Source: Candidatus Melainabacteria bacterium (GTDB lineage: Bacteria > Cyanobacteriota > Vampirovibrionia > 2-02-FULL-35-15). From it: 64,000 nt of DNA. Position 1 is the first letter of the stretch. Each line of letters starts with the position of its first letter. Location: NCBI GenBank assembly GCA_016201905.1, contig JACQBQ010000024.1, positions 52,919 to 116,918 on the forward strand, given 5' to 3'. A model generated the notes under the pieces. The model saw only the letters and a list, made by a program, of their open reading frames with translations, was not told where the DNA came from and made no database searches. Made by a program: the position numbers and the translations under genes. Shown here one piece after another: positions 1,529 through 58,640 of the stretch.

Positions 1529-2152
1529 TTAAGACAAAGAAACAGGCACTAAACCCCTAATCGATTTTTTTTGTTTAATTAAATCCCTGATTTGACTACT
1601 TGAGATATTGATAGGTTTTGTGTGAACCAATGACCATTTGAGATTTTTAATCTTTGGAGCTTTTATATTTTTTGAAGGCCTTGGCAACACAAGAAATGTA
1701 ACCAGCTTAGCAAGCTGGATTGGTTTATTCCATGTATTTAATTTCTCAAATTCATCAGCGCCGATTAAGAAATATAGAATTATTTTGTCATTGCGAGCCA
1801 AAGGCGAAGCAAGCCTGATCATTTTGCGTGAATTCAATTGGGATTGCTTCGTCGTCCGCCCAATGTGGACTCCTTGCAATGACAGTATTGTATCAATCGT
1901 ATATGCTGGTTTTCTTTTTTTAATTTCAATGTCTAAAACCTTAAAATATTTTCTCCCTTTAATTGCTCTTTTTACAAGTTCGTATCTAAATTGTGCAGGA
2001 AATAATTTTTGCCTTGATTTATGTGGTGGAATACCACATGGAATAAAATAAACACAAGACAATTTATATTCTTTGCGCGCAGCTTCTGCCATTTTTAGAT
2101 GTCCAACGTGTATTGGATTAAATGTGCCACCGAAGATTCCGATTCGTTTCAT
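1529..2152 (-). CDS. nadD: Nicotinate-nucleotide adenylyltransferase carrying an in-frame insertion of a palindromic repeat element; start placed at MKRIGIFGGTFNPIHVGH
   Basis: GIFGGTFNPIHxGH nucleotidyltransferase motif and YTIDT...FLIGADEF match NadD. The track ORF runs to 2251 only because the repeat upstream reads through in frame. About 32 extra residues lie between YTIDT and LYFLIGAD compared with B. subtilis NadD. Confidence 0.85.
   Translation of the reverse strand: MKRIGIFGGTFNPIHVGHLKMAEAARKEYKLSCVYFIPCGIPPHKSRQKLFPAQFRYELVKRAIKGRKYFKVLDIEIKKRKPAYTIDTILSLQGVHIGRTTKQSQLNSRKMIRLASPLARNDKIILYFLIGADEFEKLNTWNKPIQLAKLVTFLVLPRPSKNIKAPKIKNLKWSLVHTKPINISSSQIRDLIKQKKSIRGLVPVSLS
1787..1883. 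mobile_element. Palindromic MITE-like repeat copy A (GTCATTGCGAG...CTTGCAATGAC), inserted in frame inside nadD
   Basis: Terminal inverted repeats and an internal inverted repeat (cgaagcaa.../...ttgcttcg) are shared with copies at 2156, 27795, 31037 and 58552. The nadD ORF stays open across it. Confidence 0.85.
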
Positions 2153-2155
2153 TAT

Positions 2156-2243
2156 GTCATTGCGAGCCAAAGGCGAAGCAATCCCGATCGTTTTGCGTGA
2201 ATTCACTCGGGATTGCTTCGTTGCTAACGCTCCTTGCAATGAC
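2156..2243. mobile_element. Palindromic MITE-like repeat copy B between the proA stop and the nadD start
   Basis: About 90% identical to copy A. It sits 4 bp upstream of the nadD ATG and produces a spurious in-frame N-terminal extension in the ORF track. Confidence 0.85.
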
Positions 2244-2247
2244 ATTA

Positions 2248-3513
2248 TCAATCCCTTATTTGCCCTTCACCAGTTACCAGATATTTATATGTCACTAATT
2301 GTTCTAGAGCAATAGGTCCGCGTGCATGTAATTTTTGTGTAGAGATTCCAATTTCAGAGCCAAAACCAAATTCTTCTCCATCAGTAAAGCGTGTGCTTGC
2401 ATTTACATAGACACATGCTGCATCAATTTCTTCCTGAAATTTCTTTGCATTACTTTTATCTTCTGTAATTATGGACTCTGAGTGTTTTGTTCCATATTTA
2501 TTTATATGTTCTATAGCTTCATCAAGCGAGTTTACCACTTTAACTGCGACCTTTAAATCTAAATATTCTTTATACCAATCATCTTCAGTAGCAGGTCTTG
2601 CACTTTTTATAAATTTTCTGGTTTTATCACAGCCAAAGATTTCTACATTTTTATTCATAAGAGCTAACTCAAGTCCAGGTAAAATATTTTGAGCAATGTT
2701 TTTATGAACTAAAATTGTTTCAATGGCATTGCAAACACCTGGTCTTTGTGTTTTTGCATTGATGGCTATATCCACTGCTATAATTTCTTTTGCACTTTCA
2801 TCTATGAATAAATGACAGGTGCCACCGCCTGCCCCAATTACCGGGATTTTTGAATGCTTTAAAACAAAATCTTTTAATTCTTCTCCGCCACGCGGAATTA
2901 CAAGATCTACATATTCTTTTGATTCAAGTATTTTTATAGTTTCATTCCGTTCTTTATTTGCAATGAACTGAACTATACTTAAGTCCAATGAGCTCTTTTC
3001 TAGAGCTTTGTAAATTACATCCACAATAGCCTGATTTGAATGCGTGGCATGCTGACTGCCGCGTAAAACTATTGCATTACCTGATTTAATGGCTAGAGAA
3101 GCTGCATCAGTAGTAACATTTGGTCTTGCCTCATAAATAACACATATTACGCCAAGAGGAACAGAAATCTTTTTTATATCCATTCCCTTTGAATGTTTCC
3201 AGGCAGCTAAAACTTTACCAATAGGATCTTTTTGAGCGATGACTTTTTGAATACTATCAGCCATGCTTTGCAATCTTTTTTCATTTAATAAAAGCCTGTC
3301 TAATAGAGCATTTGAGAGGTTGTTTTTCTTTCCTTCTTCAATATCTTTTTTATTTGCTGCTAAGATGATATCTTTTGATTTAATTAATTCACTGCTTATA
3401 AGTTCAAGTGCTTTATTTCTTTCATCGGATGCAGATTTTGCTAGTTTTCTTGAGGCAATCTTAGCAGCTTTGAGTTGGCTTATGGTATCTTTCAATGCAG
3501 TTTGAGAATTCAT
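2248..3513 (-). CDS. proA: Glutamate-5-semialdehyde dehydrogenase (gamma-glutamyl phosphate reductase)
   Basis: 421 aa. VIYEARPNVT, IPRGG, NAKTQRPGVCNAxETxLVHKNIA and YVNASTRFTDG align closely with E. coli ProA. The proA-nadD adjacency is common in bacteria. Confidence 0.93.
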   Translation of the reverse strand: MNSQTALKDTISQLKAAKIASRKLAKSASDERNKALELISSELIKSKDIILAANKKDIEEGKKNNLSNALLDRLLLNEKRLQSMADSIQKVIAQKDPIGKVLAAWKHSKGMDIKKISVPLGVICVIYEARPNVTTDAASLAIKSGNAIVLRGSQHATHSNQAIVDVIYKALEKSSLDLSIVQFIANKERNETIKILESKEYVDLVIPRGGEELKDFVLKHSKIPVIGAGGGTCHLFIDESAKEIIAVDIAINAKTQRPGVCNAIETILVHKNIAQNILPGLELALMNKNVEIFGCDKTRKFIKSARPATEDDWYKEYLDLKVAVKVVNSLDEAIEHINKYGTKHSESIITEDKSNAKKFQEEIDAACVYVNASTRFTDGEEFGFGSEIGISTQKLHARGPIALEQLVTYKYLVTGEGQIRD

Positions 3514-7001: not shown

Positions 7002-7045
7002 AAGTATTAATATAGCATTCAGGGGTATTAACTAAAATGTGACAC

Positions 7046-7088
7046 GTCATTGCGAGGAGTCTTGAAGAGACGACGAAGCAATCTTCCA
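7046..7088. mobile_element. Truncated half-copy C of the palindromic MITE-like repeat (left TIR plus first internal arm only)
   Basis: acGTCATTGCGAGgagtcttgaagagacgacgaagcaatc matches the left half of the other copies. The right TIR is absent. Confidence 0.7.
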
Positions 7089-7230
7089 ATAGTTTTAAAA
7101 GTAATAGCTTGTTATATAGGTCTTTCCATTCTTTAATTCTTTTGACCAAATCATTAGTAACACCTGTGTAAAGAACAGTTTTAGCTTTACTTGTGAGAAT
7201 TACGACTTTTTTACTTCTTAAACAAACTTA
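7089..7230 (-). pseudogene. GIY-YIG nuclease family small protein remnant with no canonical start, whose C-terminal part is replaced by repeat copy C
   Basis: The minus-strand translation VVILTSKAKTVLYTGVTNDLVKRIKEWK matches the GIY-YIG motif (YxYxL...LYxGxTxxLxxRxxxH). No ATG, GTG or TTG lies between the upstream stop and the motif. The frame runs straight into the repeat. Confidence 0.5.
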
Positions 7231-7937
7231 GTGCTCTCACTAATCAGCGCACCTATATTTTCTAGATATTTTTTTAATTCCATTCCTCTTACTTCTTTTT
7301 GTGTTTCAGTATCAAATGCATAGGCTCCTCTCAAATCGGCTCCTTTCAAGTTGGCTCCTTCTAAGTTGGTTCCTACCAAGTAGGCTCCGCTCAAGTTGGC
7401 TTCGTATAAGTGGGCTTCTATCAAGTTGGCTCCTCTCAAGTTGGTTCTTTCCAGGTTGGCTCCCCTTAAAGGATATTGAGCTTGATTAGAACCTAATGAG
7501 CTACTGATAGCCACTAATAATCTATCTAGGTTTATAAAATTATTATTTATTTTAATGTTTAAAGAAGTAAAATCTATTCCGGATAAATTAAGTGGTTCAT
7601 TTCCTTTTTGTGTTCTAAATGCATTTTCTATTTTATCTAGTACCATTAGTATCTCTGCATTGTTTGCATATTTATTTTTTATTCCAAATGGATCTAGAAA
7701 CCCTGTTTGTACCAAGGTTTTTTCTGCTCTTATTCTTCCTATAGCTTCTTGTGGAAGAATTACTCTTTTTACTTCTTCTAATACTTTATTTGCGTCATCT
7801 GTATTATTTACTTTTGTTCTAACTATTGAATTGAAATAAGAAAAAAACTCCTGACCTAGGCCAGGAGATAAGGTTTCTAAAGCTTTAAATGCTTTTTGTA
7901 CTTTCTCTATACCTGCTACATTTTGTACTAATGCCAT
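7218..7937 (-). CDS. Pentapeptide-repeat protein
   Basis: The C-terminal 70 aa are tandem A(N/D)LxG pentapeptides (RGANLERTNLRGANLIEAHLYEANLSGAYLVGTNLEGANLKGADLRGAY). Visible in DNA as repeated ggctcc(t/g)ctcaagttgg units at 7320-7470. Confidence 0.85.
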   Translation of the reverse strand: MALVQNVAGIEKVQKAFKALETLSPGLGQEFFSYFNSIVRTKVNNTDDANKVLEEVKRVILPQEAIGRIRAEKTLVQTGFLDPFGIKNKYANNAEILMVLDKIENAFRTQKGNEPLNLSGIDFTSLNIKINNNFINLDRLLVAISSSLGSNQAQYPLRGANLERTNLRGANLIEAHLYEANLSGAYLVGTNLEGANLKGADLRGAYAFDTETQKEVRGMELKKYLENIGALISESTKFV

Positions 7938-8069
7938 ATATCTACTCCTTAATATAGTCCAACTAATGTTTAATCAGGATACACTCTCTATTAAAAAAGA
8001 ACAACTAAAAATCTGAAAAAAGAATTAAGATTTAGATTAAATTTTTTTAATCCTCATTTGGTTAAGGTA

Positions 8070-8393
8070 TTAAATCTTAAATTCTTTTAGCTTTTTTCTA
8101 AATTCTCTTGTATGTCCCCAGGGACGTTTATTTACATAAAGCCAGAAGTGAACCATTTCATGGTAAAGAACTTTTGCAATTTCTTTTGGTTCATTACAAA
8201 GTTTTTGTGAAAGCCTTATAAATGGTCGCTTTCCGGGCTGTGCCTGAAAATCGCCAAACTGTTTAAACCACTCTCCATGACCAAACCTATCGCTCCATAA
8301 AATTCTTATGTATGGCAATGAATTATTGAAATATTGCTTGTTTAATTTGTCATATATTTCATAAATTAGTTCGTCTTGAATTGATCTAGACAT
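8070..8393 (-). CDS. SprT-like zinc metallopeptidase domain protein
   Basis: 107 aa. YFNNSLP...W..RFG and a C-terminal HEMVH (HExxH) motif typical of the SprT-like family. Confidence 0.7.
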   Translation of the reverse strand: MSRSIQDELIYEIYDKLNKQYFNNSLPYIRILWSDRFGHGEWFKQFGDFQAQPGKRPFIRLSQKLCNEPKEIAKVLYHEMVHFWLYVNKRPWGHTREFRKKLKEFKI

Positions 8394-8433
8394 AAAAATA
8401 TTTTAACTTATAATCCTCACTCTGCATCATTAG

Positions 8434-8453
8434 GGCAGGATAAATCCTGCCCC
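8434..8453. promoter_or_regulatory. GC-rich near-perfect hairpin GGGCAGGAT-AA-ATCCTGCCC in a divergent promoter region
   Basis: A 9-bp stem read directly, lying between the divergently transcribed SprT-like and radical SAM genes. Confidence 0.3.
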
Positions 8454-8487
8454 TACAGTTTCTTTCCGTATGCATTAATATAATAGG

Positions 8488-10059
8488 ATGTCGTTTTTTA
8501 ATAAAGAAAAAATAATAACTTCAATTCCAGTAAAAATCAAGGATGCAACACGGCTTGTAATTGCATTTCCAAACACTTATACAGTTGGCATGGCTAGTCT
8601 TGGTTACCAAAATGCCTGGAAACTATTTAATCAGAGTGAGAACATAGAAGTAACTAGATGGTTTACAGATATTCAAGAACAACAAAATAATACGCGTAGG
8701 CGGGGACGCGCATCCTCGCCTACGGATTATGTGGGCTTTTCTTTTAGCTGGGAGTTAGACTATAAAAATATTTTTTCAATGCTGGAAAAGAACAATATTC
8801 CGCTTCATGCTAAGGATAGAAGTGAAGATGATCCAATTGTATTTTGTGGTGGGCAGGTTCCAAATGCAAATCCTGAGCCATTTTGTGAAAACTTTGACTT
8901 TTTTCTAATCGGTGACCTTGAGGTTTTAGCTGATCAATTGGCAAGAAAAATAATTGAGGTTGAAAGTCTAAAGCGAGATGAAAAAATTAATGAACTATCA
9001 AAATTAGAAGGCGTTTACGTACCACATCACAGAGGTACATTTAAAAAACCAATTACAAAAAATGATTTATCCTATTCATCTATTCTTACCCCAAATAGTG
9101 TTTGGCCTAATATATTTTTATTAGAGGTGGCTAGAAGCTGTCCTGAGCTTTGCAGGTTTTGCCTTGCAAGTTATGGTTCTCTTCCATTTCGTACACCAGA
9201 TGTAAAAAAAAGCTTAATACCAGCAATTGATCTGGGATTAAAACATACAAATAAAATTGGTTTGCTTGGGGCTTCAGTTACACAACATCCACAATTTGAG
9301 GAATTGATAGATTATTTATTAATCAGAAATAGCGAGGTAACCTCGCCACTACAGGTACAAATTGCATCTGTTCGTGCAGACACTATTTCAAAAAATATTG
9401 CAGAAGGATTGTACAAGCTTGGAAGTAAGTCACTGACCATGGCTGTTGAAACAGGTTCTGAGAGACTGCGTGACATAATAAACAAAAAAGTAAGCAATGA
9501 AACTATATTTAACTCAATTCAAACTATTTATAATGCTGGTTTTAATTCAATTAAACTTTATGGCATGGTGGGATTGCCATATGAGACGAAGGATGATTTA
9601 AATAAAACTGTTGAGTTCCTAAAACAAATCAAACTAAACAATAAAACTAAAAAGCTTGTGTGGGGATGCTCAGTTTTTGTACCAAAAGCACAGACACCGT
9701 TTCAGTGGTTTGGGGTCGATAAAAATGCACCCCATAAATTAAAGTCTCTAAGTAAAGAACTTCATCAAATAGGAATTGATTTTAGACCTGAAAGCTACCG
9801 TTGGACAACTATACAGGCACTTATATCAAGAGGAGATAAAAGTATAAATAAGATTCTGGAAGATGCATACAGATATGGAAATACACTTGGCAGTTTTAAC
9901 AAAGCAATAAAAGAAAATAAAGCCGAGATTGACTCAAACCACTTTATTTTTCAAAATTGGGATACAAAGATAAAACTTCCGTGGGAAAATGTACAAGGGT
10001 ATTTAAATAAAGAAACAGTAAAAGAGCACGCAAAGAAAGTTTCTATCGTAAATGTTTGA
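8488..10059 (+). CDS. Radical SAM domain protein
   Basis: 523 aa. The CPELCRFC motif (CxxxCxxC) sits in a TIM-barrel-like region. Subfamily not assigned. Confidence 0.75.
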   Translation: MSFFNKEKIITSIPVKIKDATRLVIAFPNTYTVGMASLGYQNAWKLFNQSENIEVTRWFTDIQEQQNNTRRRGRASSPTDYVGFSFSWELDYKNIFSMLEKNNIPLHAKDRSEDDPIVFCGGQVPNANPEPFCENFDFFLIGDLEVLADQLARKIIEVESLKRDEKINELSKLEGVYVPHHRGTFKKPITKNDLSYSSILTPNSVWPNIFLLEVARSCPELCRFCLASYGSLPFRTPDVKKSLIPAIDLGLKHTNKIGLLGASVTQHPQFEELIDYLLIRNSEVTSPLQVQIASVRADTISKNIAEGLYKLGSKSLTMAVETGSERLRDIINKKVSNETIFNSIQTIYNAGFNSIKLYGMVGLPYETKDDLNKTVEFLKQIKLNNKTKKLVWGCSVFVPKAQTPFQWFGVDKNAPHKLKSLSKELHQIGIDFRPESYRWTTIQALISRGDKSINKILEDAYRYGNTLGSFNKAIKENKAEIDSNHFIFQNWDTKIKLPWENVQGYLNKETVKEHAKKVSIVNV

Positions 10060-11539
10060 TCAATTAACAGAAAAATTCCAAGAAATCTTTAAGAGTCTTC
10101 GTGGCAAGTCTGTTATTAACGAAGAAAATATTGAAGCTAGTATCCTTGAGGTAAAAAGAGCGTTAATTGACGCTGATGTTAGTTTAAAAGCAATTAAAAC
10201 CTTTACAAACAAAGTACGTGAAAAAGCAATTGGTGAAGCAATTATAAAAGGTATAACACCAGCTCAGCAGTTTATAAAAATAATAAACGATGAACTCGTT
10301 GCTCTTCTTGGCGGTAAAGACGTTGCAGTGCAACGTCTCAACATTGAGGAAAAATCTAAACCAAGTATTATCCTAATGCTTGGTTTACAGGGAGCTGGAA
10401 AAACCACTACCTGTGCAAAACTTGCAAGCCTTTTAAAAAAGAAAGGCAGAAATCCACTGCTTGTAGCATTGGATTTAAAAAGGCCAGCTGCAATAGAACA
10501 ATTGAAGATACTGGGTGAACAAATTGGTGTGTTGGTATATGGCATCTCAGAAGATGTAAGGGCTTACCATGGTAAGCCCCGACAGATAGCGCAAGACGCC
10601 ATTAACTACGCAAAACAAAATAATCACGACGTTGTGATCTTAGACAGTGCCGGCAGATTGCAAATTGATACTGAACTTATGGCAGAGCTATTATTAATCG
10701 ACAGAACTATACAGCCAACTGAAAAGCTTCTTGTAGTTGACTCAATGATTGGACAGGAAGCAGCAAATGTAGGAGCAGCATTTAATACACAGATCGGGGT
10801 TACAGGTATTGTCTTAACTAAGTTAGATGGTGATGCTCGTGGCGGAGCTGCTCTTTCTATCGTAGAAGAAATTCAAAAACCAATAAAACTTATTGGCACT
10901 GGAGAAAAGATTGACGACTTTCAGGAATTTTACCCGGAGCGCATGGCAAGCAGAATACTTGGCATGGGTGATGTCTTAACATTGGTAGAAAAAGCACAGG
11001 AAAAAATCCAGGAAGATGTAGCTGCGTTTCATGAAACGCAGCTACGAGGCGACTTTAATTTCGAAACTTTTCTGCAAGCACAAAACATGATGGGAAAATT
11101 AGGTAGCTTCTCAGGAGTATTTAACATGATGGGAATGGGAGGCATGCTTAACCAGCTTGGAATAAACATGAATAAAGAAACCCAGGAAAAAATGCTTTCT
11201 GAGAATGAAGTTAAAACAAAAAAACAAAAAGCCATGATTCAAAGCATGACAGGGAAAGAAAGAAGAAATCCAAATATTTTAACCCCAGCAAGAAATAGGA
11301 GAATTGCACATGGGTCTGGTCATAAAGAAAAAGATGTAGAAAAGCTAATAAGTGAGTTTAAGCAGATGAAAAAATTAATGGACCAATTAAAACCTTTTAT
11401 GCAAATGTTTCAGGGTAAAAACATGTCTCAGGACATGTTGAAAAACATGATGCCAGGCTCAATTGGAAAAATGCAAAACCCTTTTATGAATCCGCAAAGC
11501 AACATGTTAAAAGGTTTTAAGCCAAAGAAGCAAAAGTAA
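10052..11539 (+). CDS. ffh: Signal recognition particle protein Ffh
   Basis: 495 aa. GLQGAGKTTTCAKLA P-loop, DSAGR, TKLDGDARGGAALS and a Met-rich M domain at the C terminus. Overlaps the upstream gene by 8 nt. Confidence 0.95.
   Translation: MFDQLTEKFQEIFKSLRGKSVINEENIEASILEVKRALIDADVSLKAIKTFTNKVREKAIGEAIIKGITPAQQFIKIINDELVALLGGKDVAVQRLNIEEKSKPSIILMLGLQGAGKTTTCAKLASLLKKKGRNPLLVALDLKRPAAIEQLKILGEQIGVLVYGISEDVRAYHGKPRQIAQDAINYAKQNNHDVVILDSAGRLQIDTELMAELLLIDRTIQPTEKLLVVDSMIGQEAANVGAAFNTQIGVTGIVLTKLDGDARGGAALSIVEEIQKPIKLIGTGEKIDDFQEFYPERMASRILGMGDVLTLVEKAQEKIQEDVAAFHETQLRGDFNFETFLQAQNMMGKLGSFSGVFNMMGMGGMLNQLGINMNKETQEKMLSENEVKTKKQKAMIQSMTGKERRNPNILTPARNRRIAHGSGHKEKDVEKLISEFKQMKKLMDQLKPFMQMFQGKNMSQDMLKNMMPGSIGKMQNPFMNPQSNMLKGFKPKKQK
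10556..10580. repeat. 25-nt palindrome-containing segment GTAAGGGCTTACCATGGTAAGCCCC inside ffh, encoding VRAYHGKP
   Basis: The identical 25-mer recurs at 14380-14404 in an unrelated gene in the same reading frame. Its core GGGCTTACCATGGTAAGCCC is a perfect 20-bp palindrome. Confidence 0.8.
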
Positions 11540-11669
11540 TCTTTAACCATTTATCATAATCTAGATTAAGAAAAATATTAAATCTTTCTAATGAAGGTGC
11601 TTTCATCTGGTTAATTTTGTTAGGATAAAAATATAACAACAAATTATTTTATTTAAGGACTTAAATATT

Positions 11670-12533
11670 ATGCAAATACTACCAGCAAATCTCCCACTTT
11701 CATACCATAGAGCTATAGAGCCTTACTTTGACAATAACTTATTAAATCTCTTAAAGCGTGCCTCAAGAGATGAAATAAACATCATGAAAAGAAGGCTTAA
11801 TTTTGGAGGAAAAAAGGCAGAAGTAGAATTTATATTTAAAGGAAAAAACTTAGACGATGTTCGTTCTCCTATACCAATTCCTCGCCTGGTACGCGACAAG
11901 TTAATTGGTTCAATTGTAGATAGTGGCTGGAGATCATTTTTAGATGGGACTTCTGGAAATGTGTCGCTATTTAGCAATCACGTAAGATTACACGGTAACA
12001 ACAATCTTGCAATAAACTCAACAAATATAAAAACCACAGGTGATAATTCAAAGTTTATTAACTCTCATGATATAGAAGCTCCTAAAAGTAGTAACTCGAT
12101 TTTTTGTGACTCAGGTGGTGAAGAAGTTAACGGCAGATTAGTTAAGACTTCTGTCATTGCTTGTCCTGCTTCACTAGTCTTTCAAACAAGAATTCTAAAA
12201 GCAGTAAACTCTCCACACTTAAGAGCAAGTGATTGTGAAAGTGTGCATTCAATTCGAGGTGGAAACAATGTTCTTGAACATGTACAAGGATCAGTATTAG
12301 AAGGATGCACCAACACTACCCTTGATCATTGTGAAAGTGTTAAAGCTACAAATTGTAAAAAGGTGGTTATAAAAAATACTAATGGTAATGCTCTATTGGA
12401 TACCTTTTCAGGATTGAAAAAGGTTACAGTAGAAAATGGAGAGACGCTAACAAGGTGGGTTAGATTCATGCGATTGTTTGGAAGTAAAACAACAAATTGT
12501 TCTAATCCAAAGCCTCCAGAACAAACTCCATAA
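11670..12533 (+). CDS. Hypothetical protein (Asn/Ser/Gly-rich)
   Basis: 287-aa ORF with no recognisable motif. Coding-like periodicity. Confidence 0.4.
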   Translation: MQILPANLPLSYHRAIEPYFDNNLLNLLKRASRDEINIMKRRLNFGGKKAEVEFIFKGKNLDDVRSPIPIPRLVRDKLIGSIVDSGWRSFLDGTSGNVSLFSNHVRLHGNNNLAINSTNIKTTGDNSKFINSHDIEAPKSSNSIFCDSGGEEVNGRLVKTSVIACPASLVFQTRILKAVNSPHLRASDCESVHSIRGGNNVLEHVQGSVLEGCTNTTLDHCESVKATNCKKVVIKNTNGNALLDTFSGLKKVTVENGETLTRWVRFMRLFGSKTTNCSNPKPPEQTP

Positions 12534-12558
12534 TTATTATTTTCTAATATAATCTAAA

Positions 12559-13104
12559 ATGCGCATAAGACAAAAAACAGAAGTTAGACCTGAAGAAACT
12601 TTATTTAAACTTTCTGACTTTACACCAAGCACAAGAACAAATAACAAAAAAATATTTAAGAGTGTAATTGAAAAAGCTTATGGAGGAGCCATAAGAACAC
12701 TATCAGGCAAAAAAAACTATAAGCCTCTTAGAGAATTTGTCAGCCATTTTGGAGTACTTGCTGAAAAAAATATTATTTTTGAAAGCCTTATTACAGAACC
12801 CATAAATGTTCAGCTAGAAGCACTAAAAAAAGTTTATGAATGTCTTGCAATGGGACATTTAAGACTAGCCTTAATAGAAAAAAATCTAAGTGAAACACTA
12901 GACTATCATGGTCAAAAATCCAGATATTATAATTCAATTTTTAGAACTTTAATTGAAATTTCAAAAGAAGGTATTAAAAAAGAATCTACAGAAGGACATT
13001 CAGTAGCACTTGCACTATGGAGAGCCAGAAAAGCTGCACTTGAAAAAAATCCTCTGCCAATGTCAAATAGTCAACCAACATTGTTCGATCAAATTCGAGA
13101 CTAA
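12559..13104 (+). CDS. Hypothetical protein
   Basis: 181-aa ORF with no recognisable motif. Confidence 0.4.
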   Translation: MRIRQKTEVRPEETLFKLSDFTPSTRTNNKKIFKSVIEKAYGGAIRTLSGKKNYKPLREFVSHFGVLAEKNIIFESLITEPINVQLEALKKVYECLAMGHLRLALIEKNLSETLDYHGQKSRYYNSIFRTLIEISKEGIKKESTEGHSVALALWRARKAALEKNPLPMSNSQPTLFDQIRD

Positions 13105-13110
13105 AGGTAA

Positions 13111-13803
13111 CTAGTCCGGTGCCATACTGGCAAACCTTTTAGTAATCACCTGCGGTCTTGTAATTGCAGTGCCTATTACCACAGCATATGCACCAATTTC
13201 AAAAGCCTTTTTAACATCCTGCGGTTCCCAGATCCTTCCTTCCATGATTACCGGAGCTAGCGATTCTTCTGTAAGTTCAGCCAATAAATTAAAATCAGGA
13301 CCTGTGTTTATTTTATATCTGGTATCTTTTGTATAACCACTAAGCGTTGTAGAAATAATATCTGCACCAAGCTTACAAGCATTTATTCCATCTTCAAAAG
13401 TCGCAATATCGCAAATGACGATCTTGCCTTCGTTTTTTACAAGGCTAATCTGGTCTTTAAGTGTTGAACTGTCTTCACGAGGCCTATCTGTACCGTCAAT
13501 AGCAATAAAATCAATTCCAATTTTAAGTAATTCTTTTAAATCTTTCATGGTCGCTGTTATATAAACCTTATCAAGCCAGTTAATAGGTGTGGGTTCAAGT
13601 TTTGTTAGACCTACTACCGGCACAGAAACATTTTTTTTAATATAATTTATATTTTTAACACCACAAAGCCTTAAACCGCCAGCGCCACCATTGATTACTG
13701 ACTGACTAATTGCAAGCAGATGCTCTGATGTATTTAGTGGCTCATTGCCTTCAGCTTGAACAGAAACAATGATTTTATTTTCTAATTTGTTTATCTCGCT
13801 CAT
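13111..13803 (-). CDS. nanE: Putative N-acylglucosamine/N-acetylmannosamine-6-phosphate 2-epimerase
   Basis: 230 aa. The TIM-barrel pattern, with IAIDGTDRPR and GADIISTTLSGYT, matches the NanE family. Confidence 0.75.
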   Translation of the reverse strand: MSEINKLENKIIVSVQAEGNEPLNTSEHLLAISQSVINGGAGGLRLCGVKNINYIKKNVSVPVVGLTKLEPTPINWLDKVYITATMKDLKELLKIGIDFIAIDGTDRPREDSSTLKDQISLVKNEGKIVICDIATFEDGINACKLGADIISTTLSGYTKDTRYKINTGPDFNLLAELTEESLAPVIMEGRIWEPQDVKKAFEIGAYAVVIGTAITRPQVITKRFASMAPD

Positions 13804-13875
13804 TTTATATGCAACAGAATAGCAGAATATGGTATAAAAAACATGTTCTAGTCTTATGTTTTTATAAATAAAAAT

Positions 13876-14607
13876 ATGGAAATTTTTACAGGAAAAAACA
13901 AGGAACTTAGCGATAAAAAAGCCTTTGAAATTATTAAAACCCAGGTTTTAAAAAAACCTGATTCACTAATCGGCATTGCAGTCGGTAAAACTACTGACGG
14001 ATTATATAAATTAATCTCCAAAGACGCAGTCAAATCCACAAAAAAGTGGAGAAAGATAAAGCTTTTTCAAATTGATGAAAATCTTGGAGCTCATCCAAGC
14101 TCACCGGTTAGCTTTAACTTTGAAATTAGAAAAGAATTAAAACAGTTATTAAATATTCTAAATTCAAAAAATATATTCTTAATGGATGGTACAGAGAAAC
14201 CCAAAAAAACAATTAAAGAAGCCTACAAATTTATAAAATCAAATGGTGGTATAGATTTAATCATTCTTGGAATTGGTCCAGAATATGATCCCCATGTTGC
14301 TTACAACACCACTGGTAAATCAGCACTAAATTCAAGGATGAGAGTAGTGGATCTTCATCCAAAAGTAATAGAAAAACTGGTAAGGGCTTACCATGGTAAG
14401 CCCCAACGGAAAATAAAAGGCATTACTCTTGGCATTAAAGATATCCTTGAAACAAAAAAAGCGCTACTAATTGCTTATGGAAAAGAAAAGGCAAAATCAT
14501 TTAAGCTTATTCTAAAGAAAAAAGTAAATATGAAAAAAGGATCAGTTACGGCACTTCTGTTACATAAGAATCTTGAAATTGTAGTTGATAAGGATGTAGT
14601 AAAATAG
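13876..14607 (+). CDS. Glucosamine-6-phosphate deaminase / 6-phosphogluconolactonase family protein (NagB-like)
   Basis: 243 aa. IGIAVGKTTDGLY...FQIDENLG...GIDLIILGIGPEYDPHVAYN pattern typical of the NagB/Pgl superfamily. Divergent from nanE. Confidence 0.7.
   Translation: MEIFTGKNKELSDKKAFEIIKTQVLKKPDSLIGIAVGKTTDGLYKLISKDAVKSTKKWRKIKLFQIDENLGAHPSSPVSFNFEIRKELKQLLNILNSKNIFLMDGTEKPKKTIKEAYKFIKSNGGIDLIILGIGPEYDPHVAYNTTGKSALNSRMRVVDLHPKVIEKLVRAYHGKPQRKIKGITLGIKDILETKKALLIAYGKEKAKSFKLILKKKVNMKKGSVTALLLHKNLEIVVDKDVVK
14380..14404. repeat. Second copy of the 25-nt segment GTAAGGGCTTACCATGGTAAGCCCC, inside the nagB-like gene, encoding VRAYHGKP
   Basis: Exact 25/25 identity with 10556-10580, in the same frame. 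Confidence 0.8.
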
Positions 14608-14642
14608 TCTTATATAAACTTAAAAACGGAGATTAATAAAAA

Positions 14643-17267
14643 ATGAGAGTTGCTTTATCACTTCCAATAATTTCTAAATCACCACAACCAGTTGTATATG
14701 ACCCACGAAAAAGTCTGGATGGTTATCCAAATACACCTGAGGATAAAAACTTTGTTTTAAAAGTAAAAAATGCCCGTCCAAAGCTTTTAAGTGAAACAAG
14801 TTATGCCAAAACTATAAATAAACCACTAACAGCAACAGAAAAAATCTGGTATAGTCACCTTGAAGCTGGAAACCCTGCTAAAAAAGGTTCAATTATTTAC
14901 TTGAAGCCTGATCTTTTGCTTATACAAGATGCCACTGGAAAGCTCTTACTACTACAAGCTGAGCTTTTGTTTACCTTGCTTGGAAAAGAACAAACAGAAA
15001 TTTTAACTACCTTATACTATGACCACAATATAAAAGTAGACTATGGAATAGAACAGGCAATTATTGAAGACAAAGAAGGAATAAAATTTTTAGGAACAAG
15101 TTCAAGTAAAAGAGGAATTATTTTCTCACTTCCTGGAAATGGGATTTGCCACAGAGTAAGCGATGAGTACTTTGATCTTCCTGGAGGTGTTTTATTTGGC
15201 TCTGATTCTCACACACCAACAGGCGGTGGAATGGGAATGTTTGCCATTGGCAAAGGTGGCTGGAGCATTGCCAAGTCTCTTGCAGCTGGACTACCCATGC
15301 CAATTGATAGAAATCCTATTATTGGTGTTCATCTAAAAGGCTCATTGCCAGATGGAACTGAGCCTAAGCAAATTGTTCAGCTTTTAAATAGAGACATAAT
15401 AAGACTTTTTGGAAATGAAGGAAATGGAAGTTATATAGAGTTTTTTGGTGAAGGTGTTAAGTCTGTATCAGTGGTAGGCAGAAGTTCTATTACAAACTCA
15501 CTTGTCGATGGTGGCATGGGAACAGGCTTATTCCCGCCAGATGAGCTTGTAGCAAAATATTTAGAGTCAAGAAACAGAGCAGATCTGGCAGGCTGGGTAA
15601 GAGCTAACTTAAAAGATTTAAATCCTGATCCTGAGGTATTAAAAGATCCTGAGAAATATTTTGATAAGTTACTCGTATATGATTTATCACAGGAATTACA
15701 TCCAGCACTTGCTATGCCAGGTAATCCAAAAAATGTTTTTTATTTGGATGAGATTCCAAATGTAATCAAATTTATAAACGAAGAAGTTCTTGCTCACTAT
15801 CAGGATTTTTTAACTAACGGCAAGGTAGATAAAGCAAAGATTAAATCGTTTGTAGAGGCGCACCATGGTGTGCTTCTACTACGGGCAACACCAATAGAAA
15901 CCTTGGTAAACCTGGCAGTACAAGAAATTGATGTTAAAAAAGTTTATGACAAAAGAAAACTAAGTTTAGAAGTCTCATCAGGAAGTATTGGCAGCTGCAC
16001 ACATTCAGGGAAAGATGATATAGAAGCAGCTCTCTGGGCAAATATTCAGCTTGCTAAAAGTAAAATAAATAGAGCCTCGTCAGTACCTGTAAGCGTAACC
16101 TATGGCTCGCGTGACGGCTGGCTTTCTGTTCAGTCAAATAAAACTATGCAGGATTTTATAAAAGAAGGACATCTGGTTTTACTTGATAGCGCTTGTGGAC
16201 CGTGTATCGGTATGGGATTTACTCCTCAGGTTGACACTGCAGCAGTTAGATCTTTTAATAGAAACTTTTTCGGACGAGCTGGCACAAAAGAAAAAATTGA
16301 CCAGGTTTACTTAGCAAGTCCAGCAGTTACTGTTTATCTTGCAGCATGCGGGAGACTTGACTCATATGACCCGAAAACCAGATCGTTTATTGCAAAAGAT
16401 GATTCTGATAAAGAAATAAGAATCCTTCTTGCAAATCCAAAAAGCGAGGCTGAACTAAAACCCATTGTCTCAAATGATTTTAATAATCCAGATGGAGAGA
16501 GGGCTGCATTTATTTTGCCAGCTCCAAAAGACAAAGCAAAAGAAATAAATGTTCTCTATGATGGAAATACTATTAGTTCACTTCCTTCTGACATGTACGA
16601 TATTCCAGGCGAGAAGTTTGAGAACTTTCCAGTCTTAATCGCACTTGGAGACAACGTTACCACAGATGATCTATCTGCAGCAGGATTAAAATATATTCCA
16701 AAGCGTGGAAACTTACTTGAACTTGAACTTGGATTTTTTGAAAGCAAGGCATCTCAGGAAAAAAGAGATCCTCAGTTTTACTACAACCTGGCTAAAGAAT
16801 ATAAAACAAATCCAAAATACAGCGGCTCAGTAATGATAGGAGGTAAGCTTTTTGGTTCAGGCAGTTCACGTGAAGCAGCAGCATTTATACCTAGACATCT
16901 TCGAACAAAAGTAGCAATAGCAGAAAGTTTTGCACCAATACACAGGGAAAATGCCATCGAACAAGGGCTTTTTTATCTTACCTTTAAAGACCCAACTGAC
17001 AGAACAAAACTAGATCGCGAAGACTTAATTTCAATTTATGGTTTAGATAAATTAGACCCGGATAAGAGAGACATTGAGGTAAAAGTTAAAAAGAAAGATG
17101 AGAAAGAATTTTCTATAGTCTGTGAACATGTTCTAGATACACCTTACAAGATAGAAATATTTAGAGCAGGATCAGAGCCAAATCTGTTTAAACAGATTTT
17201 AATTGATAAGTTTAAAGGTAATGTTTCAGAGTTTATGAAATGGTTTAGTGAAAAAAATAGGTTATAA
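14643..17267 (+). CDS. acn: Aconitate hydratase (aconitase A / mitochondrial-type domain order)
   Basis: 874 aa. IQDATG, GICHRVSDEY, GSDSHT, IGSCTHS, ACGPCIGMG and the C-terminal GSGSSRE swivel-domain motifs are all present. Confidence 0.88.
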   Translation: MRVALSLPIISKSPQPVVYDPRKSLDGYPNTPEDKNFVLKVKNARPKLLSETSYAKTINKPLTATEKIWYSHLEAGNPAKKGSIIYLKPDLLLIQDATGKLLLLQAELLFTLLGKEQTEILTTLYYDHNIKVDYGIEQAIIEDKEGIKFLGTSSSKRGIIFSLPGNGICHRVSDEYFDLPGGVLFGSDSHTPTGGGMGMFAIGKGGWSIAKSLAAGLPMPIDRNPIIGVHLKGSLPDGTEPKQIVQLLNRDIIRLFGNEGNGSYIEFFGEGVKSVSVVGRSSITNSLVDGGMGTGLFPPDELVAKYLESRNRADLAGWVRANLKDLNPDPEVLKDPEKYFDKLLVYDLSQELHPALAMPGNPKNVFYLDEIPNVIKFINEEVLAHYQDFLTNGKVDKAKIKSFVEAHHGVLLLRATPIETLVNLAVQEIDVKKVYDKRKLSLEVSSGSIGSCTHSGKDDIEAALWANIQLAKSKINRASSVPVSVTYGSRDGWLSVQSNKTMQDFIKEGHLVLLDSACGPCIGMGFTPQVDTAAVRSFNRNFFGRAGTKEKIDQVYLASPAVTVYLAACGRLDSYDPKTRSFIAKDDSDKEIRILLANPKSEAELKPIVSNDFNNPDGERAAFILPAPKDKAKEINVLYDGNTISSLPSDMYDIPGEKFENFPVLIALGDNVTTDDLSAAGLKYIPKRGNLLELELGFFESKASQEKRDPQFYYNLAKEYKTNPKYSGSVMIGGKLFGSGSSREAAAFIPRHLRTKVAIAESFAPIHRENAIEQGLFYLTFKDPTDRTKLDREDLISIYGLDKLDPDKRDIEVKVKKKDEKEFSIVCEHVLDTPYKIEIFRAGSEPNLFKQILIDKFKGNVSEFMKWFSEKNRL
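15852..15879. repeat. Imperfect 28-nt CCATGG-centred palindrome GTAGAGGCGCACCATGGTGTGCTTCTAC inside the aconitase gene, encoding EAHHGVLLL
   Basis: Outer arms gtaga/tctac and core caccatggtg are palindromic, with 2 mismatches. It has the same CCATGG-centred architecture and x-A-(Y/H)-H-G coding as the 25-mer. Confidence 0.4.
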
Positions 17268-23541: not shown

Positions 23542-23841
23542 ATGGTTAGAGGGAAGGTGAGCGACATGAATCATAATTTACAACAAGTTAAAGATTTAGA
23601 GAACATCGCCGACTGGGTAAAAAGAATTGAGCCAGAACTTTTATCTAATTTTGTACGATACTGGTCAATAAGAAAATCCCTTCCATCCATTGCATCAGCC
23701 TTGATTAACGAAATAAAAACTGCGGGTTCATCAAATGACTGGCTAAGTCTCATTGAATCAAACCATAAGTTTAGAGAACTGTATGGAGAAGAAAAGGCGG
23801 ATGAGTTAGTAGATATTATTGAAAAGAATAGCTCAGCCTAG
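23542..23841 (+). CDS. Hypothetical protein
   Basis: 99-aa ORF; no motif. Confidence 0.35.
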   Translation: MVRGKVSDMNHNLQQVKDLENIADWVKRIEPELLSNFVRYWSIRKSLPSIASALINEIKTAGSSNDWLSLIESNHKFRELYGEEKADELVDIIEKNSSA

Positions 23842-24839
23842 ACAAACCTTGCTAAGACTGGTTTACTTTCCACATGCATTTTCTGCTCAGCTTCTTCTAG
23901 GATTTTTACTACCTGATAGCCGCTTGTACCATCTGAGCGTGGAGCTTCGCCCGACTCTATACAATGAACAAAATGCTCACACTCTAATCTTAAAGGCTCT
24001 TCTTCACTGTAACTTGTAGATTCTACTTTTACAGTGCCATCCTGTTCTATTGAATAAAGCTCCAGCTTATTTTGAATCCTGCTGTCGTTTAATACTGCTG
24101 TTTTCTTGCTCCCATTTACGGTTAATAAAACCTGCTTCTGCGGATCAATCCAGCTATTGTGAATATGTGCAGGAACATCACCCGGAAAGTTTAAGTCAAG
24201 GTGAGCAACATCAATTACACCATCGCTATTTGTAGACCATCCACAGGCATTTACAATGCCACTTGGTTCAAGTCCTAATATATAGCTCATCATAGAAATA
24301 TCATGGGGAGCCAGATCCCAAATGACATTATTATCTCTTCTTGCTTGCTGATTAAAATTTCTTCTATCACTGTTTAAAAATCTGACTTCGCCAAGTTCAC
24401 CTTTAAAAATTAATTCTCTAAGACAATTTACAGCAGGATGATAAACCAAAAGATGTCCCACCATTAAGATAAGGTTTTTTACACCAGCTAAATGGTTTAA
24501 TTCTTGAGCCTGCAAATAACCTCTTGCTAAAGGCTTTTCAACATATACATTCTTACCAGCTAAGAGCGCTAGTCTTGCAAGTGAATAGTGAGTATGTGTT
24601 GGTGTAGCTATTACAATACCTTTTATATCTGGATCTGAAATCAGGTCTGAATAGCTTATAGTAACTTTCACACTGTATGTTTTTCGTACTAAGTCCAAGA
24701 CTTTTGGATCAGCATCACAAACGGTGTTCAGAACTTTGATCTGGGATAAATTTCTTGCTAGGTTTTTACCCCAACTCCCACAGCCTGCAAGAGCAATATT
24801 GTTTTTCATAATATTTTTCCATAGAAGCATTGCATGCAA
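23838..24839 (-). CDS. Gfo/Idh/MocA family NAD(P)-dependent oxidoreductase
   Basis: 333 aa. N-terminal Rossmann motif IALAGCGSWGKNLARNL and the EKPLA motif typical of the family. Confidence 0.85.
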   Translation of the reverse strand: MHAMLLWKNIMKNNIALAGCGSWGKNLARNLSQIKVLNTVCDADPKVLDLVRKTYSVKVTISYSDLISDPDIKGIVIATPTHTHYSLARLALLAGKNVYVEKPLARGYLQAQELNHLAGVKNLILMVGHLLVYHPAVNCLRELIFKGELGEVRFLNSDRRNFNQQARRDNNVIWDLAPHDISMMSYILGLEPSGIVNACGWSTNSDGVIDVAHLDLNFPGDVPAHIHNSWIDPQKQVLLTVNGSKKTAVLNDSRIQNKLELYSIEQDGTVKVESTSYSEEEPLRLECEHFVHCIESGEAPRSDGTSGYQVVKILEEAEQKMHVESKPVLARFV

Positions 24840-24864
24840 TGCTTCTATGTTTACAAAAATACTT

Positions 24865-27783: not shown

Positions 27784-27794
27784 TAACTTTACAC

Positions 27795-27884
27795 GTCATT
27801 GCGAGAAGCGTTAGCGACGAAGCAATCTCAACAACGTGAGTGAGATTGCCACGTCGTCCGCCTAGGCGGACTTCTCGCAATGAC
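27795..27884. mobile_element. Palindromic MITE-like repeat copy D (hom-aspS intergenic)
   Basis: ACGTCATTGCGAG...CTCGCAATGACGT termini with an internal inverted repeat gacgaagcaatctca/tgagattgccacgtcgtc. Confidence 0.85.
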
Positions 27885-27913
27885 GTTATACGGTAAAATA
27901 AATAATAAATCTA

Positions 27914-42031: not shown

Positions 42032-43125
42032 TGATTAACAGAAAAGAAATCAAAAAAATCATAATCTTTCGCTACCGTTTTATAGGTGATACAGTCTTGA
42101 CCATTCCTTTTATTAAAAATGTAAAAGAGTATTTCCCAGATGCACAAATTGATGTACTAGTTTCGCCAAATAGTGGAGAGCTAATTGAAGGGAACCCAGA
42201 TGTAAATAAAATCATTTATTTTGACAATTCAAAGTTTCATAAATATGAAAATATTCAAGAGGCTGGATCGCACGATCCAGCCTCCTTGTATTGCAATTCC
42301 TTTTTAGGTTGTGTAAAAGTTCTTAAAAGAGAAAATTATGAGCTTGCTTTTGTCTTAAAACGTTCATTTTCAAGTGCTTTCTTAGCTTTTTTAAGTAGGG
42401 CAAAATATAGAGTTGGTTTTAATACAGAGTTTAGATCTTTTTTATTAACACATAAAATTAAATATGATAAGAGTATTCATGAGATAGATAATTTTTTAAA
42501 TTGTTTGAAACCGTTATTAGATATAACTCCACAAAGACACATGCCTAAAATTTATACAACACAAAAAGAGGAAATAAAAGCCAATGGTTTTTTAGTCAGA
42601 CTTGATCGCTTTAAACCAAAAGTTTTAATTCATGCTAGTAGTGCGCACCCTTATAAAATGTGGCCAAAGAGATACTTTGCAAAGCTTATGGATTATTTAT
42701 ATGATGAGTTTGGAGCACAATTCGTTTTTACTGGAGCAAAAATTGATAAAGAAGCTTATGAAAAAATACTTGGGTGGTGTGAAAATAAAAATAAATTTAA
42801 AATACTTGACCTCTTGGGGCTGACTTCTATTAGAGAGTGCTATTCGATTTATAAAGGACTTGATCTAGCAGTATGTGTTGATTCTGGTAATGCTCATATT
42901 TCAGCAGCAAGTGGTATTCCAACATATGTTTTATATGGACCTACAAGACCAGAGCGCTGGCTGCCGCTTGGTAAAAGCGTTTTTCCACTCCGATTAAATC
43001 AGTTATTACCGTGTCAGCCTTGTGATGTAAAAGTTGAGTGTTCTCATCTAAGCTGCATGAAACTGTTAAGTCCAGAATTTATATTTAGTAACTTAAAAAA
43101 CGGCAAAATTAAAGTAACTACTTAG
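42031..43125 (+). CDS. Glycosyltransferase family 9 (LPS heptosyltransferase-like)
   Basis: 364 aa. The N-terminal RYRFIGDTVLTIPFIKNVKEYFPDAQIDVLV is typical of RfaC/RfaF-type GT9 enzymes. Confidence 0.8.
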   Translation: MINRKEIKKIIIFRYRFIGDTVLTIPFIKNVKEYFPDAQIDVLVSPNSGELIEGNPDVNKIIYFDNSKFHKYENIQEAGSHDPASLYCNSFLGCVKVLKRENYELAFVLKRSFSSAFLAFLSRAKYRVGFNTEFRSFLLTHKIKYDKSIHEIDNFLNCLKPLLDITPQRHMPKIYTTQKEEIKANGFLVRLDRFKPKVLIHASSAHPYKMWPKRYFAKLMDYLYDEFGAQFVFTGAKIDKEAYEKILGWCENKNKFKILDLLGLTSIRECYSIYKGLDLAVCVDSGNAHISAASGIPTYVLYGPTRPERWLPLGKSVFPLRLNQLLPCQPCDVKVECSHLSCMKLLSPEFIFSNLKNGKIKVTT

Positions 43126-44454: not shown

Positions 44455-44527
<73 letters not shown>

Positions 44528-44666
44528 AATTCTTCCACAAGAATGTGAGTGATTAATGGTGTGCTAATAAAGCGAACCTTGTTCCAATTTATTTGGACAA
44601 GGTGAGCGGTATTTGCAAGGCTGGTTCGAGGAGCAACGTCACCGCAGAACCAGCTGTTAGAGATAC

Positions 44667-44718
44667 AGCAGAGGACTGAAAATCCTTGTGTCGGCAGTTC
44701 AATTCTGCCTCGCGGCAA
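44667..44718 (+). repeat. 52-bp direct repeat of the tRNA-Phe 3' end (anticodon stem to acceptor end), preceded by a degenerate copy of the 5' half
   Basis: AGCAGAGGACTGAAAATCCTTGTGTCGGCAGTTCAATTCTGCCTCGCGGCAA is identical to 44477-44528. The upstream 25 nt resemble the tRNA 5' half at about 70%. Confidence 0.85.
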
Positions 44719-44748
44719 GTTTTATGTTAATAAAAAGTTTTGATAGTT

Positions 44749-55699: not shown

Positions 55700-55814
55700 A
55701 TTTATATTTCTCCTTCTATGATCCGCTATTCCTGCTATGAGATTATATCCTAATACGGGGGCTTGAGAGTAGTCGTAAAAGTCTCAGTCCTGTATTACTT
55801 AATCAATAATAGTA

Positions 55815-55852
55815 CATAGGGAGGCTGGGTTGTGCAACCCAGCCTCCCTATG
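55815..55852. promoter_or_regulatory. 38-nt perfect GC-rich palindrome CATAGGGAGGCTGGGTTG-tg-CAACCCAGCCTCCCTATG in a 650-bp noncoding region
   Basis: Read directly. Followed at 55865-55897 by a second nested inverted repeat, CACATAGTTATTTTGATAACTGTGAACTATGTG. Confidence 0.4.
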
Positions 55853-56346
55853 AAATAACCATTCACATAGTTATTTTGATAACTGTGAACTATGTGCCTT
55901 TATATAGCTATTTACAGTGTTACAGGACTTGGCTTTATCTGTATGTAGCCATGTATGAGCCATAAATGCAATCGTAAATAAAACAAAAATTAGCCTGGGC
56001 AACATTGTGATTATGGTGTGGATATACCCAGATCTAAAAGAAATTAAAACAAAAGTAATAAAAAACTTTGAAGAGAGCCAGGTGGCTTTTTAGTACATAA
56101 AGAAAAAGAAAATATTTTTTCATCCTCTGTAGTTACTATGCTTGCTTAGCCAAATCTTTTGTAATAGCGCTATTAAAGTTAACAAACTCTTAAAATATAG
56201 CTTTAAATGCTAAATTGAAAGCTATAACTTTAATTTTATTTAATGAAATAGCCTTGGTAATTTAAACTTTTCATAACCATTCATATGTAATCTGTCCATA
56301 GCTTAGTTAAGGTGAAAGATTATTTACAAATTATTCAGAGGTTGAA

Positions 56347-58543: not shown

Positions 58544-58551
58544 GGCTTTAC

Positions 58552-58640
58552 ACGTCATTGCGAGGAGGTACGATGTACCGACGTGGCAATCTCTAAAACG
58601 TTATTGAGATTGCTTCGTCGCTAACGCTCCTCGCAATGAC
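58552..58640. mobile_element. Palindromic MITE-like repeat copy E abutting the 5' end of the aldehyde dehydrogenase gene
   Basis: ACGTCATTGCGAGG...CCTCGCAATGAC termini. Internal palindrome GTACGATGTACCGACGTGGCAATCTC.../...GAGATTGCTTCGTCG. Confidence 0.85.

Follow-up and report, generated by a model that had tools for sequence, protein, structure and literature searches.

The 64-kb stretch of the Candidatus Melainabacteria bacterium genome analysed here (contig JACQBQ010000024.1, positions 52,919 to 116,918; hereafter the window) carries one 25-nt segment, GTAAGGGCTTACCATGGTAAGCCCC, twice on its forward strand, at positions 10556-10580 within ffh, the gene of the signal recognition particle protein, and at 14380-14404 within a NagB-like gene. 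We interpret this 25-mer, with a probability of roughly 60%, as the core of a 28-nt repeat that resembles the repetitive extragenic palindromes (REPs) of other bacteria and belongs to a family of palindromes, flanked by GTAG-type tetranucleotide tags, that colonizes permissive coding loops. The same estimate covers the view that it is one of several related families of this kind in this Melainabacteria (Vampirovibrionia) clade. As aligned, the general unit is a GTAA or GTAG tag, a palindrome of 20 bp whose base is GGGC and whose middle varies, and a CAAC or CTAC tag. Comparison of several genomes shows such units dispersed, in frame and in both orientations, over what read as variable surface loops of unrelated, intact genes.

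The first-pass annotation of this DNA had pointed to the shared 25-mer and judged a chance origin unlikely, which our controls bear out: the match is exact at both positions, no copy of the 25-mer arose in 100 dinucleotide shuffles of the window, and no shuffle yielded a match even with three mismatches. Its description of the core, GGGCTTACCATGGTAAGCCC, as a perfect, GC-rich palindrome of 20 bp in AT-rich surroundings is likewise accurate (~60% G+C against ~35% for the window). The two copies can be aligned over 28 nt, with identity at 27 of the 28 positions, and each consists of GTAA, the palindrome with its GGGC base, and either CAAC (NagB-like gene) or CGAC (ffh). Both are translated in one and the same frame, to V-R-A-Y-H-G-K-P. 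When folded as single-stranded DNA, the unit is predicted to form an 8-bp stem with a 4-nt loop (10 formal pairs) at -8.4 kcal/mol (z = -4.5). An assembly artefact is excluded, because the same ffh sequence was recovered from two independent Logan assemblies and from the NCBI metagenome-assembled genome (MAG) ‘Candidatus Melainabacteria bacterium’.

The 28-nt unit occurs at seven independent gene sites, in ffh, the nagB-like gene, queG, trpB, a CTP-transferase-like gene and two sites of a radical-SAM gene, six times in forward and once in reversed orientation. Scanning the GTDB species genomes, among which the source genome is not included, with the 18-mer core returned nine matches, four of which extend in similarity past the query. 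In MAG nzgw191, also the source of the closest Ffh relative (73% identity), the palindrome lies reversed within queG and is translated as V-G-A-Y-H-G-K-P. A 20-mer scan of JGI metagenomes gave five matches, one of them informative: contig L021 (34% GC) carries cttGTAAGGGCTTACCATGGTAAGCCCCAATtaa within trpB, where the peptide is again VRAYHGKPQ. Further copies came from syntenic loci retrieved via Ffh orthologs. Copies with the same tags are present at radical-SAM site B in loci L014, L023 and L024 (decayed in L012), at radical-SAM site C in L012, in the CTP-transferase-like gene of L022 and L023, and in the nagB-like loop of L024. Siblings with a strict GTAG tag lie at L003 6871-6898, at L015 3763-3791 and 4650-4677, and, with an identical core, on the Limnothrix contigs L007, L002 and L005; GTAG-GGGCTTACCATGGTAAGCC was found on two Limnothrix contigs and on one contig binned as Anaerolineae. 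The suggestion in the first-pass annotation of a very small mobile palindrome thus finds support, in that a core of 20-22 bp with the same tags turns up, in either orientation, in unrelated genes across related genomes. A literature search on palindromes in Melainabacteria found nothing relevant.

Conservation of DNA symmetry

The site in ffh that holds the 28-nt cassette (site 2) can be followed through five orthologs of ~70% protein identity, which have GTAAGGGC...GCCCCAAC in common at the same codon position. Their stems differ, with TTA/TAA in the window, AAG/CTT in L012, ACG/CGT in L013 and ATG/CAT in L014, and L015 retains a decayed copy. The corresponding peptides are RAYHGKP, RASNGLP, RARHGVP and RACHGMP. 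Differences between copies are strictly Watson-Crick compensatory changes that alter the peptide and keep the symmetry of the DNA. The first-pass annotation had proposed comparing codons with those of relatives, where a common peptide written in other codons, together with no more than two copies genome-wide, would speak for coincidence or for selection on the peptide. We dropped that reading, because the relatives keep the DNA palindrome while the peptide varies.

In an alignment of 20 copies, 92% of the cells are paired. Six of the ten pairs have changed on both sides, and 35 cells carry double changes, compared with 11.4 in shuffles, none of which reached 35 in 500 trials; sliding the partner columns by 1-3 positions lowers pairing to 20-50%. 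G-U combinations occupy only 3 of the 200 cells, and this near absence of wobble pairs argues for a constraint or mechanism that acts on DNA and not on RNA. Rfam gave no match at E <= 1 for positions 8000-15000. The central hexamer varies among copies (CCATGG in most, with CAATGG, CCGCGG, CTGCAG and GCATGC in others), while conservation is seen in the stem base (GGGC), in the tags on either side and in the symmetry itself. As far as aligned copies can reveal it, the constraint is shown to act on the symmetry of the DNA rather than on protein or RNA.

Occupancy, length and frame at individual sites

Comparison of orthologs also shows that the 28-nt cassette at a given site differs against the species tree: on the Ffh, radical-SAM and aconitase trees the cassette types are intermixed, a pattern in conflict with that of the species. 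Site 2 of ffh is occupied by GGGC-type cassettes in the window, L012, L013, L014 and L015 and by AGGCAATTCATGAATTGCCT-type (AGGC-type) cassettes in L022-L024, and L016 has none. At radical-SAM site B, eight of nine orthologs hold a 28-nt unit in identical register, with at least three unrelated cores (GGGCTTGCCATGGCAAGCCC, GGGACAGGTCGCGACCTGTCCC and AGACGTGACTAATCACGTCT), and the window has 13 nt instead. The REP-like unit occupies the nagB-like loop in the window and, as a related cassette read in a different frame, in L024. In L012 its place is taken by a palindrome of 80 nt and in both L022 and L023 by a GTCATTGCGAGG-type element of ~100 nt, whereas L016 has no such occupant. Loci L012 and L016 are 88% identical over 14.4 kb and differ in six strongly divergent patches, four of which are cassette sites. 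The patches at radical-SAM sites B and C are equal in length with unrelated cores, and strictly vertical inheritance with gradual drift was rejected for these two sites on that ground. In ffh, the same pair shows a sharply bounded divergent patch of ~110 nt around the hairpin, the rest of the gene being ~92% identical.

L016 (SRR13076504) stands apart in another respect. Its whole 21 kb contains no perfect GC-rich palindrome, compared with three in L012 and two to seven in each of the other relatives, and its cassette sites appear decayed or replaced. This genome may have lost whatever maintains the palindromes.

The first-pass annotation had inferred little or no net length change at the two sites of the 25-mer. 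This is roughly correct: the NagB-like loop differs by 0 from Borrelia NagB, by 0 to -1 from solved NagB structures and by -2 codons from L016, the closest hairpin-free relative used for loop-length comparison, but Ffh is longer at site 2, by five residues relative to the solved B. subtilis Ffh and by two codons relative to L016. The accompanying idea that the element overwrites native codons instead of inserting fits the sites where one cassette stands for another or where the length change is zero. It does not fit site A of the radical-SAM gene, at 8695-8724, which is a clean insertion of 27 nt (nine codons) relative to six orthologs. Site A is the only clean insertion among the window sites that can be compared with orthologs, and simple insertion as a general rule was accordingly rejected. 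At a further palindrome in ffh (site 3), the net length change is exactly zero relative to eight orthologs and a solved Ffh structure; its right arm matches the native orthologous sequence at 10 of 13 positions and its left arm at 5-7 of 13.

The ffh and nagB-like copies lie in a common frame because stops close the other forward frames. Frame 2 of the forward orientation meets the stop G|TAA formed from the GTAA tag, frame 3 of the TTA/TAA variant meets TGG-TAA, and the sole open forward frame of this variant is GTA-AGG-GCT-TAC-CAT-GGT-AAG-CCC. In the TTG/CAA variant, frame 3 is open and is used, giving RKGLPWQAP in the radical-SAM gene of L014 and RKGLPRQAP in the nagB-like gene of L024. Read from the codons, the shared frame is a residue of selection against stops and not evidence of a coding function, and the pattern of open frames shows purifying selection filtering the copies that survive.

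Sibling palindromes and other features of the window

The window as a whole is enriched in palindromes (Table 1). It contains nine perfect hairpins with a stem of at least 10 and a loop of at most 2, compared with a mean of 0.53 and a maximum of 2 in dinucleotide shuffles, and 14 hairpins with at least 10 pairs lie inside open reading frames (ORFs), compared with 4.9 +/- 2.3 in synonymous-codon shuffles; ffh carries five of these 14. Over all Melainabacteria loci examined, tags are enriched: [GA]TA[GA] marks an end of 24 of the 41 GC-rich perfect palindromes, compared with 23% of random positions, and the strict GT[AG]G tag accompanies 8 of the 41 compared with 5% of random positions. Relatives of the sibling cassette at ffh site 1, of the form GAGACG...CGTCTC, occupy that site in L022, L023 and L015. 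At ffh site 3, the palindrome agrees with L003:6871-6898 in 22 of its 28 positions, and the differences are compensatory.

Table 1 Palindromic cassettes, their host genes and related elements. Positions are those of the window unless a locus is named.
Feature	Position	Strand	Description
28-nt cassette, ffh site 2	10556..10583	+	GTAA + GGGCTTACCATGGTAAGCCC + CGAC, V-R-A-Y-H-G-K-P-R
28-nt cassette, NagB-like gene	14380..14407	+	GTAA + same 20-bp palindrome + CAAC, V-R-A-Y-H-G-K-P-Q
ffh (signal recognition particle protein), host gene, ORF intact	10052..11539	+	Domains SRP54_N, SRP54, SRP_SPB
NagB-like host gene, ORF intact	13876..14607	+	Glucosamine_iso family
Sibling cassette, ffh site 1, AGACG...CGTCT family	10314..10342	+	GTAA-A-GACGTTGCA-G-TGCAACGTC-T-CAAC
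Sibling 28-bp perfect palindrome, ffh site 3	11018..11045	+	GTAG-CTGCGTTTCATGAAACGCAG-CTAC
GTAG-tagged hairpin, radical-SAM gene (site A)	8695..8724	+	C-GTAG-GCGGGGA-CGCGCA-TCCTCGC-CTAC-G
Intergenic copy, canonical REP form	8433..8456	-	GTAG + GGGCAGGAT-TT-ATCCTGCCC
30-bp perfect palindrome, ATAG/CTAT tags	24820..24849		At start of ORF 23838-24839
Intergenic palindrome, 19 paired positions, ATAG/CTAT tags	55813..55854		Stem GAGGCTGG...CCAGCCTC in common with 42257-42286
In-frame palindrome in family-9 glycosyltransferase gene, no GTAG-type tag	42257..42286	+	GAGGCTGGATCG-CA-CGATCCAGCCTC
~100-nt GTCATTGCGAGG-type copies	1782-1888, 2151-2248, 7038-7084, 27787-27889, 31031-31128, 58546-58645		
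Limnothrix redekei GTAG-GGGC hairpins	L025: 5686-5713, 5773-5800		
Limnothrix redekei Y1_Tnp gene	L025: 6001-6789		Ortholog of the L007 gene

Two quasi-palindromes with one mismatch each, at 10357-10387 (13 pairs) and 10450-10476 (11 pairs), lie in the conserved Ffh segments KPSIILMLGLQ and NPLLVALDL, and seem to have been lengthened through synonymous or conservative codon choice. A second repeat family consists of imperfect palindromes of ~100 nt with the ends GTCATTGCGAGG...CCTCGCAATGAC and inner CGAAGCAATC motifs. Two of its window copies lie within the unannotated TTG ORF 1529-2251(-), and the others listed in Table 1 are located where ORFs end or close by; the family also occurs in frame in the nagB-like loop of L022 and L023, and probably in Ffh site 2 of P0021.

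Several neighbouring features were recorded along the way. In the window, ffh and nanE are separated by two ORFs (287 and 181 aa; 11670-13104) for which Pfam gave no match; the pair is also present in L014 (2661-4100) and L024 (11574-13131) and is missing from the other relatives. L012 has a 154-aa cysteine-rich ORF (9431-9895) between its radical-SAM gene and ffh; its close relative L016 lacks this ORF, and there 5 nt separate the two genes. The ORF 7218-7937(-) has a 15-nt tandem periodicity at 7318-7469, with seven overlapping copies, typical of a pentapeptide-repeat protein. A stretch that duplicates the 3' ~54 nt of tRNA-Phe (44455-44527) with 97% identity follows that gene 190 nt downstream (44664-44721), possibly as the relic of an integration (att) site.

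Relation to known palindromes, rival explanations and significance

REPs are defined by a GTAG or GTGG tetranucleotide 0-2 nt 5' of a hairpin with a 7-20-bp stem and a short loop, the stem base being G/C-rich with at least three G/C among its first four bases (PMC6006769). GTAG-tagged families have been described in Cyanobacteria, and intragenic REPs, a minority class, have been documented in Opitutus terrae, Rickettsia conorii (RPE-4/RPE-6) and others (PMC3733652); the repeats and their REP-associated tyrosine transposase (RAYT, or TnpA_REP) have been treated in several studies (Nunvar 2010; Bertels & Rainey 2011, PMC3116915; Di Nocera 2013, PMC3733652; Quentin 2018, PMC6006769). Our unit shares with REPs a short GC-rich hairpin, a G/C-rich stem base (GGGC, with 10 formal pairs), a GTAG-type tetranucleotide at the stem foot, and dispersed families with compensatory stem variants. 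Its siblings at 8433-8456(-), 8695-8724 and 11018-11045 carry the REP tag itself, and one Limnothrix contig combines a GTAG-tagged copy of the identical core with a gene for a Y1 transposase. It differs from REPs in its GTAA/CAAC tags, which flank it on both sides, in its fixed length of 28 nt and in being a loop-less perfect palindrome. Furthermore, both copies and most siblings are not extragenic but in frame inside ORFs, and the cassettes are apparently exchanged in place at fixed sites; the G-T pairing noted for many REPs is nearly absent, and no RAYT was found in the Melainabacteria loci examined here.

Rickettsia palindromic elements (RPEs; Ogata et al. 2000), the classic example, are comparable in behaviour: they too are in-frame selfish palindromic DNA within genes, including essential ones, tolerated as surface loops and variably present among orthologs. 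RPE-4 and RPE-6 are short and correspond to CGTC-tagged REPs (PMC3733652), but a classic RPE measures ~100-150 nt, compared with 28 nt here, and resides in a different phylum. The elements described here are likewise in-frame palindromic repeats that add peptide and are polymorphic among orthologs, with no sequence relationship to RPEs. Whereas an RPE adds a peptide segment, the net length change here is small or zero, and cassettes are swapped.

In the cyanobacterial lineage, small dispersed repeats (SDRs) of 21-27 nt were reportedly described from heterocystous species by Elhai et al. in 2008; they are said to be often nested in heptamer repeats or HIP1, and mobility via RNA is said to have been proposed for them. 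They resemble our units as dispersed repeats of 20-30 nt whose secondary structure is backed by compensatory changes and for which mobility has been proposed. Their sequences are unrelated, and the strict Watson-Crick symmetry found here points to DNA. Selfish palindromic DNA of this kind is thus already known from intragenic REPs and RPEs. What sets the present case apart is the unusually small, fixed, double-tagged and loop-less 28-nt unit, its mostly intragenic location in the loci examined, the scarcity of G-T pairs and the apparent replacement in register.

A candidate enzyme is suggested by the cyanobacterium Limnothrix. On contig L007, GTAGGGGCTTACCATGGTAAGCCCCTAC lies 2.4 kb from a Y1_Tnp gene (PF01797, E = 8e-16; motifs NHIH...YIHANP) whose product is a transposase of the IS200/RAYT type. 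In Limnothrix redekei, the orthologous Y1_Tnp gene is preceded, 200-300 bp upstream, by two inverted, head-to-head GTAG-GGGC hairpins, a REPtron-like layout that is the arrangement described for REP-associated transposases. Homology search indicates that the Limnothrix Y1 protein family is conserved across Cyanobacteria, and only cyanobacterial orthologs were among the 120 matches listed. In a motif scan of all loci examined, the Limnothrix gene was the sole RAYT-like match.

We infer mobilization by a RAYT-like enzyme. The units would move and replace one another as single-stranded DNA hairpins through a RAYT-type HUH/Y1 transposase encoded elsewhere in the genome. Such an enzyme would make its cuts at the two tags that bracket a resident hairpin and could join a different family member into the gap, so that a cassette would be exchanged in place with little or no change in length; arm-to-arm templated correction may also keep the stems perfect. 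Several observations weigh against a REP-like mobile family. In 74 kb of the source genome (the window plus 10 kb to its left), the GTAA-GGGCTTACCATGGTAAGCCC variant has only two copies, 3.8 kb apart, and tagged palindromes of all families together number about eight. A scan for HUH/Y motifs found no Y1/RAYT gene in these 74 kb, nor in ~150 kb from Melainabacteria relatives. Both window copies depart from the REP tag, with GTAA on one strand and GTCG or GTTG on the other. The nine GTDB matches are about the number expected by chance on a hand estimate made with no shuffle control on the collection, and the 20-mer is rare in the JGI metagenomes. Moreover, the incongruence of cassettes could arise from short homologous-recombination tracts between strains, and ffh site 3, to judge from its arms, looks more like creation in situ than transposition.

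A stronger version, in which the 28-nt palindromes spread mainly by precise cassette exchange or overwriting and not by ordinary insertion, we consider rather unlikely. Here a hairpin-specific enzyme, or annealing of single-stranded DNA at the replication fork, would install another family member, in the same register, where a resident cassette or native coding sequence of partial similarity had stood. We also think it unlikely that the palindromes are made and kept in place with no transposition, by template switching or hairpin-templated repair, one arm being copied as a reverse complement onto the other during replication or repair so that codons are overwritten and the arms become complementary. 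Template-switch mutations, reportedly treated by Ripley in 1982, Loytynoja and Goldman in 2017 and Monttinen and Loytynoja in 2022, are said to create or perfect hairpins. They overwrite in place at unchanged length and produce perfect inverted repeats in a single step, and ffh site 3, with its zero length change and near-native right arm, fits them, as do the strictly Watson-Crick covariation and the two seemingly extended ffh quasi-palindromes. They do not disperse one sequence to unrelated loci, and so fail for identical sequences of 20-28 nt that recur with the same asymmetric tags at unrelated loci of different genomes; the clean 27-nt insertion and the complete replacement of cassettes between 88%-identical genomes are left unexplained as well, and even the site 3 palindrome has its close match at another locus of another genome.

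It is improbable that short homologous-recombination tracts from co-occurring strains shuttle ancient, vertically inherited hairpins that are break-prone hotspots and not mobile, although the ~110-nt patch between L012 and L016 reaches beyond the 28-nt unit and the cassette types are at odds with the species tree; such tracts account neither for one unit in seven non-homologous genes nor for the fact that a single genome holds identical copies in ffh and the nagB-like gene. Less probable again is a functional RNA or DNA structure under selection, whether for mRNA stability, pausing, regulation or protein binding. The stable predicted fold and the position kept in ffh with compensatory changes agree with such a role, but the unit sits in genes unrelated to one another, where its orientation and frame vary, it comes and goes among close relatives, the same loop accepts unrelated palindromes or elements resembling miniature inverted-repeat transposable elements, and both the dearth of G-U pairs and the Rfam result count against it. 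Each of these three explanations fits part of the data, and none gives dispersal to unrelated genes. We give almost no credence to the remaining possibilities, namely chance, selection on the peptide VRAYHGKP, or a site, either CCATGG or the longer palindrome, recognized by a restriction-modification or other DNA-modifying system, the last of which the first-pass annotation had raised. CCATGG does form the centre of most copies, but some palindromic centre is unavoidable in any loop-less palindrome, and we rejected the restriction-site reading on the variability of the apex, since it is the stem base, tags and symmetry that are conserved. The peptide reading was rejected in turn on the variable peptides, and the shuffles exclude chance.

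REPs rank with the most abundant repeats of bacteria, and their mode of movement is still an unsolved question. The present lineage is a sister group of the photosynthetic cyanobacteria and is known almost only from metagenomes. Fixed cassettes in essential genes that differ among orthologs at the same coordinates provide a natural series of before and after sites, which reveal the boundaries of the elements, the constraints of frame and the behaviour of replacement. The cassettes also create extreme local divergence in conserved markers such as ffh and trpB, and can thereby mislead phylogenies, recombination scans and tests of selection. If precise exchange proved to be the main route, it would overwrite 7-9 codons in essential genes like ffh at unchanged length, and REP-type DNA would then have a mode of spread, and of diversifying protein loops, that has not been described before.

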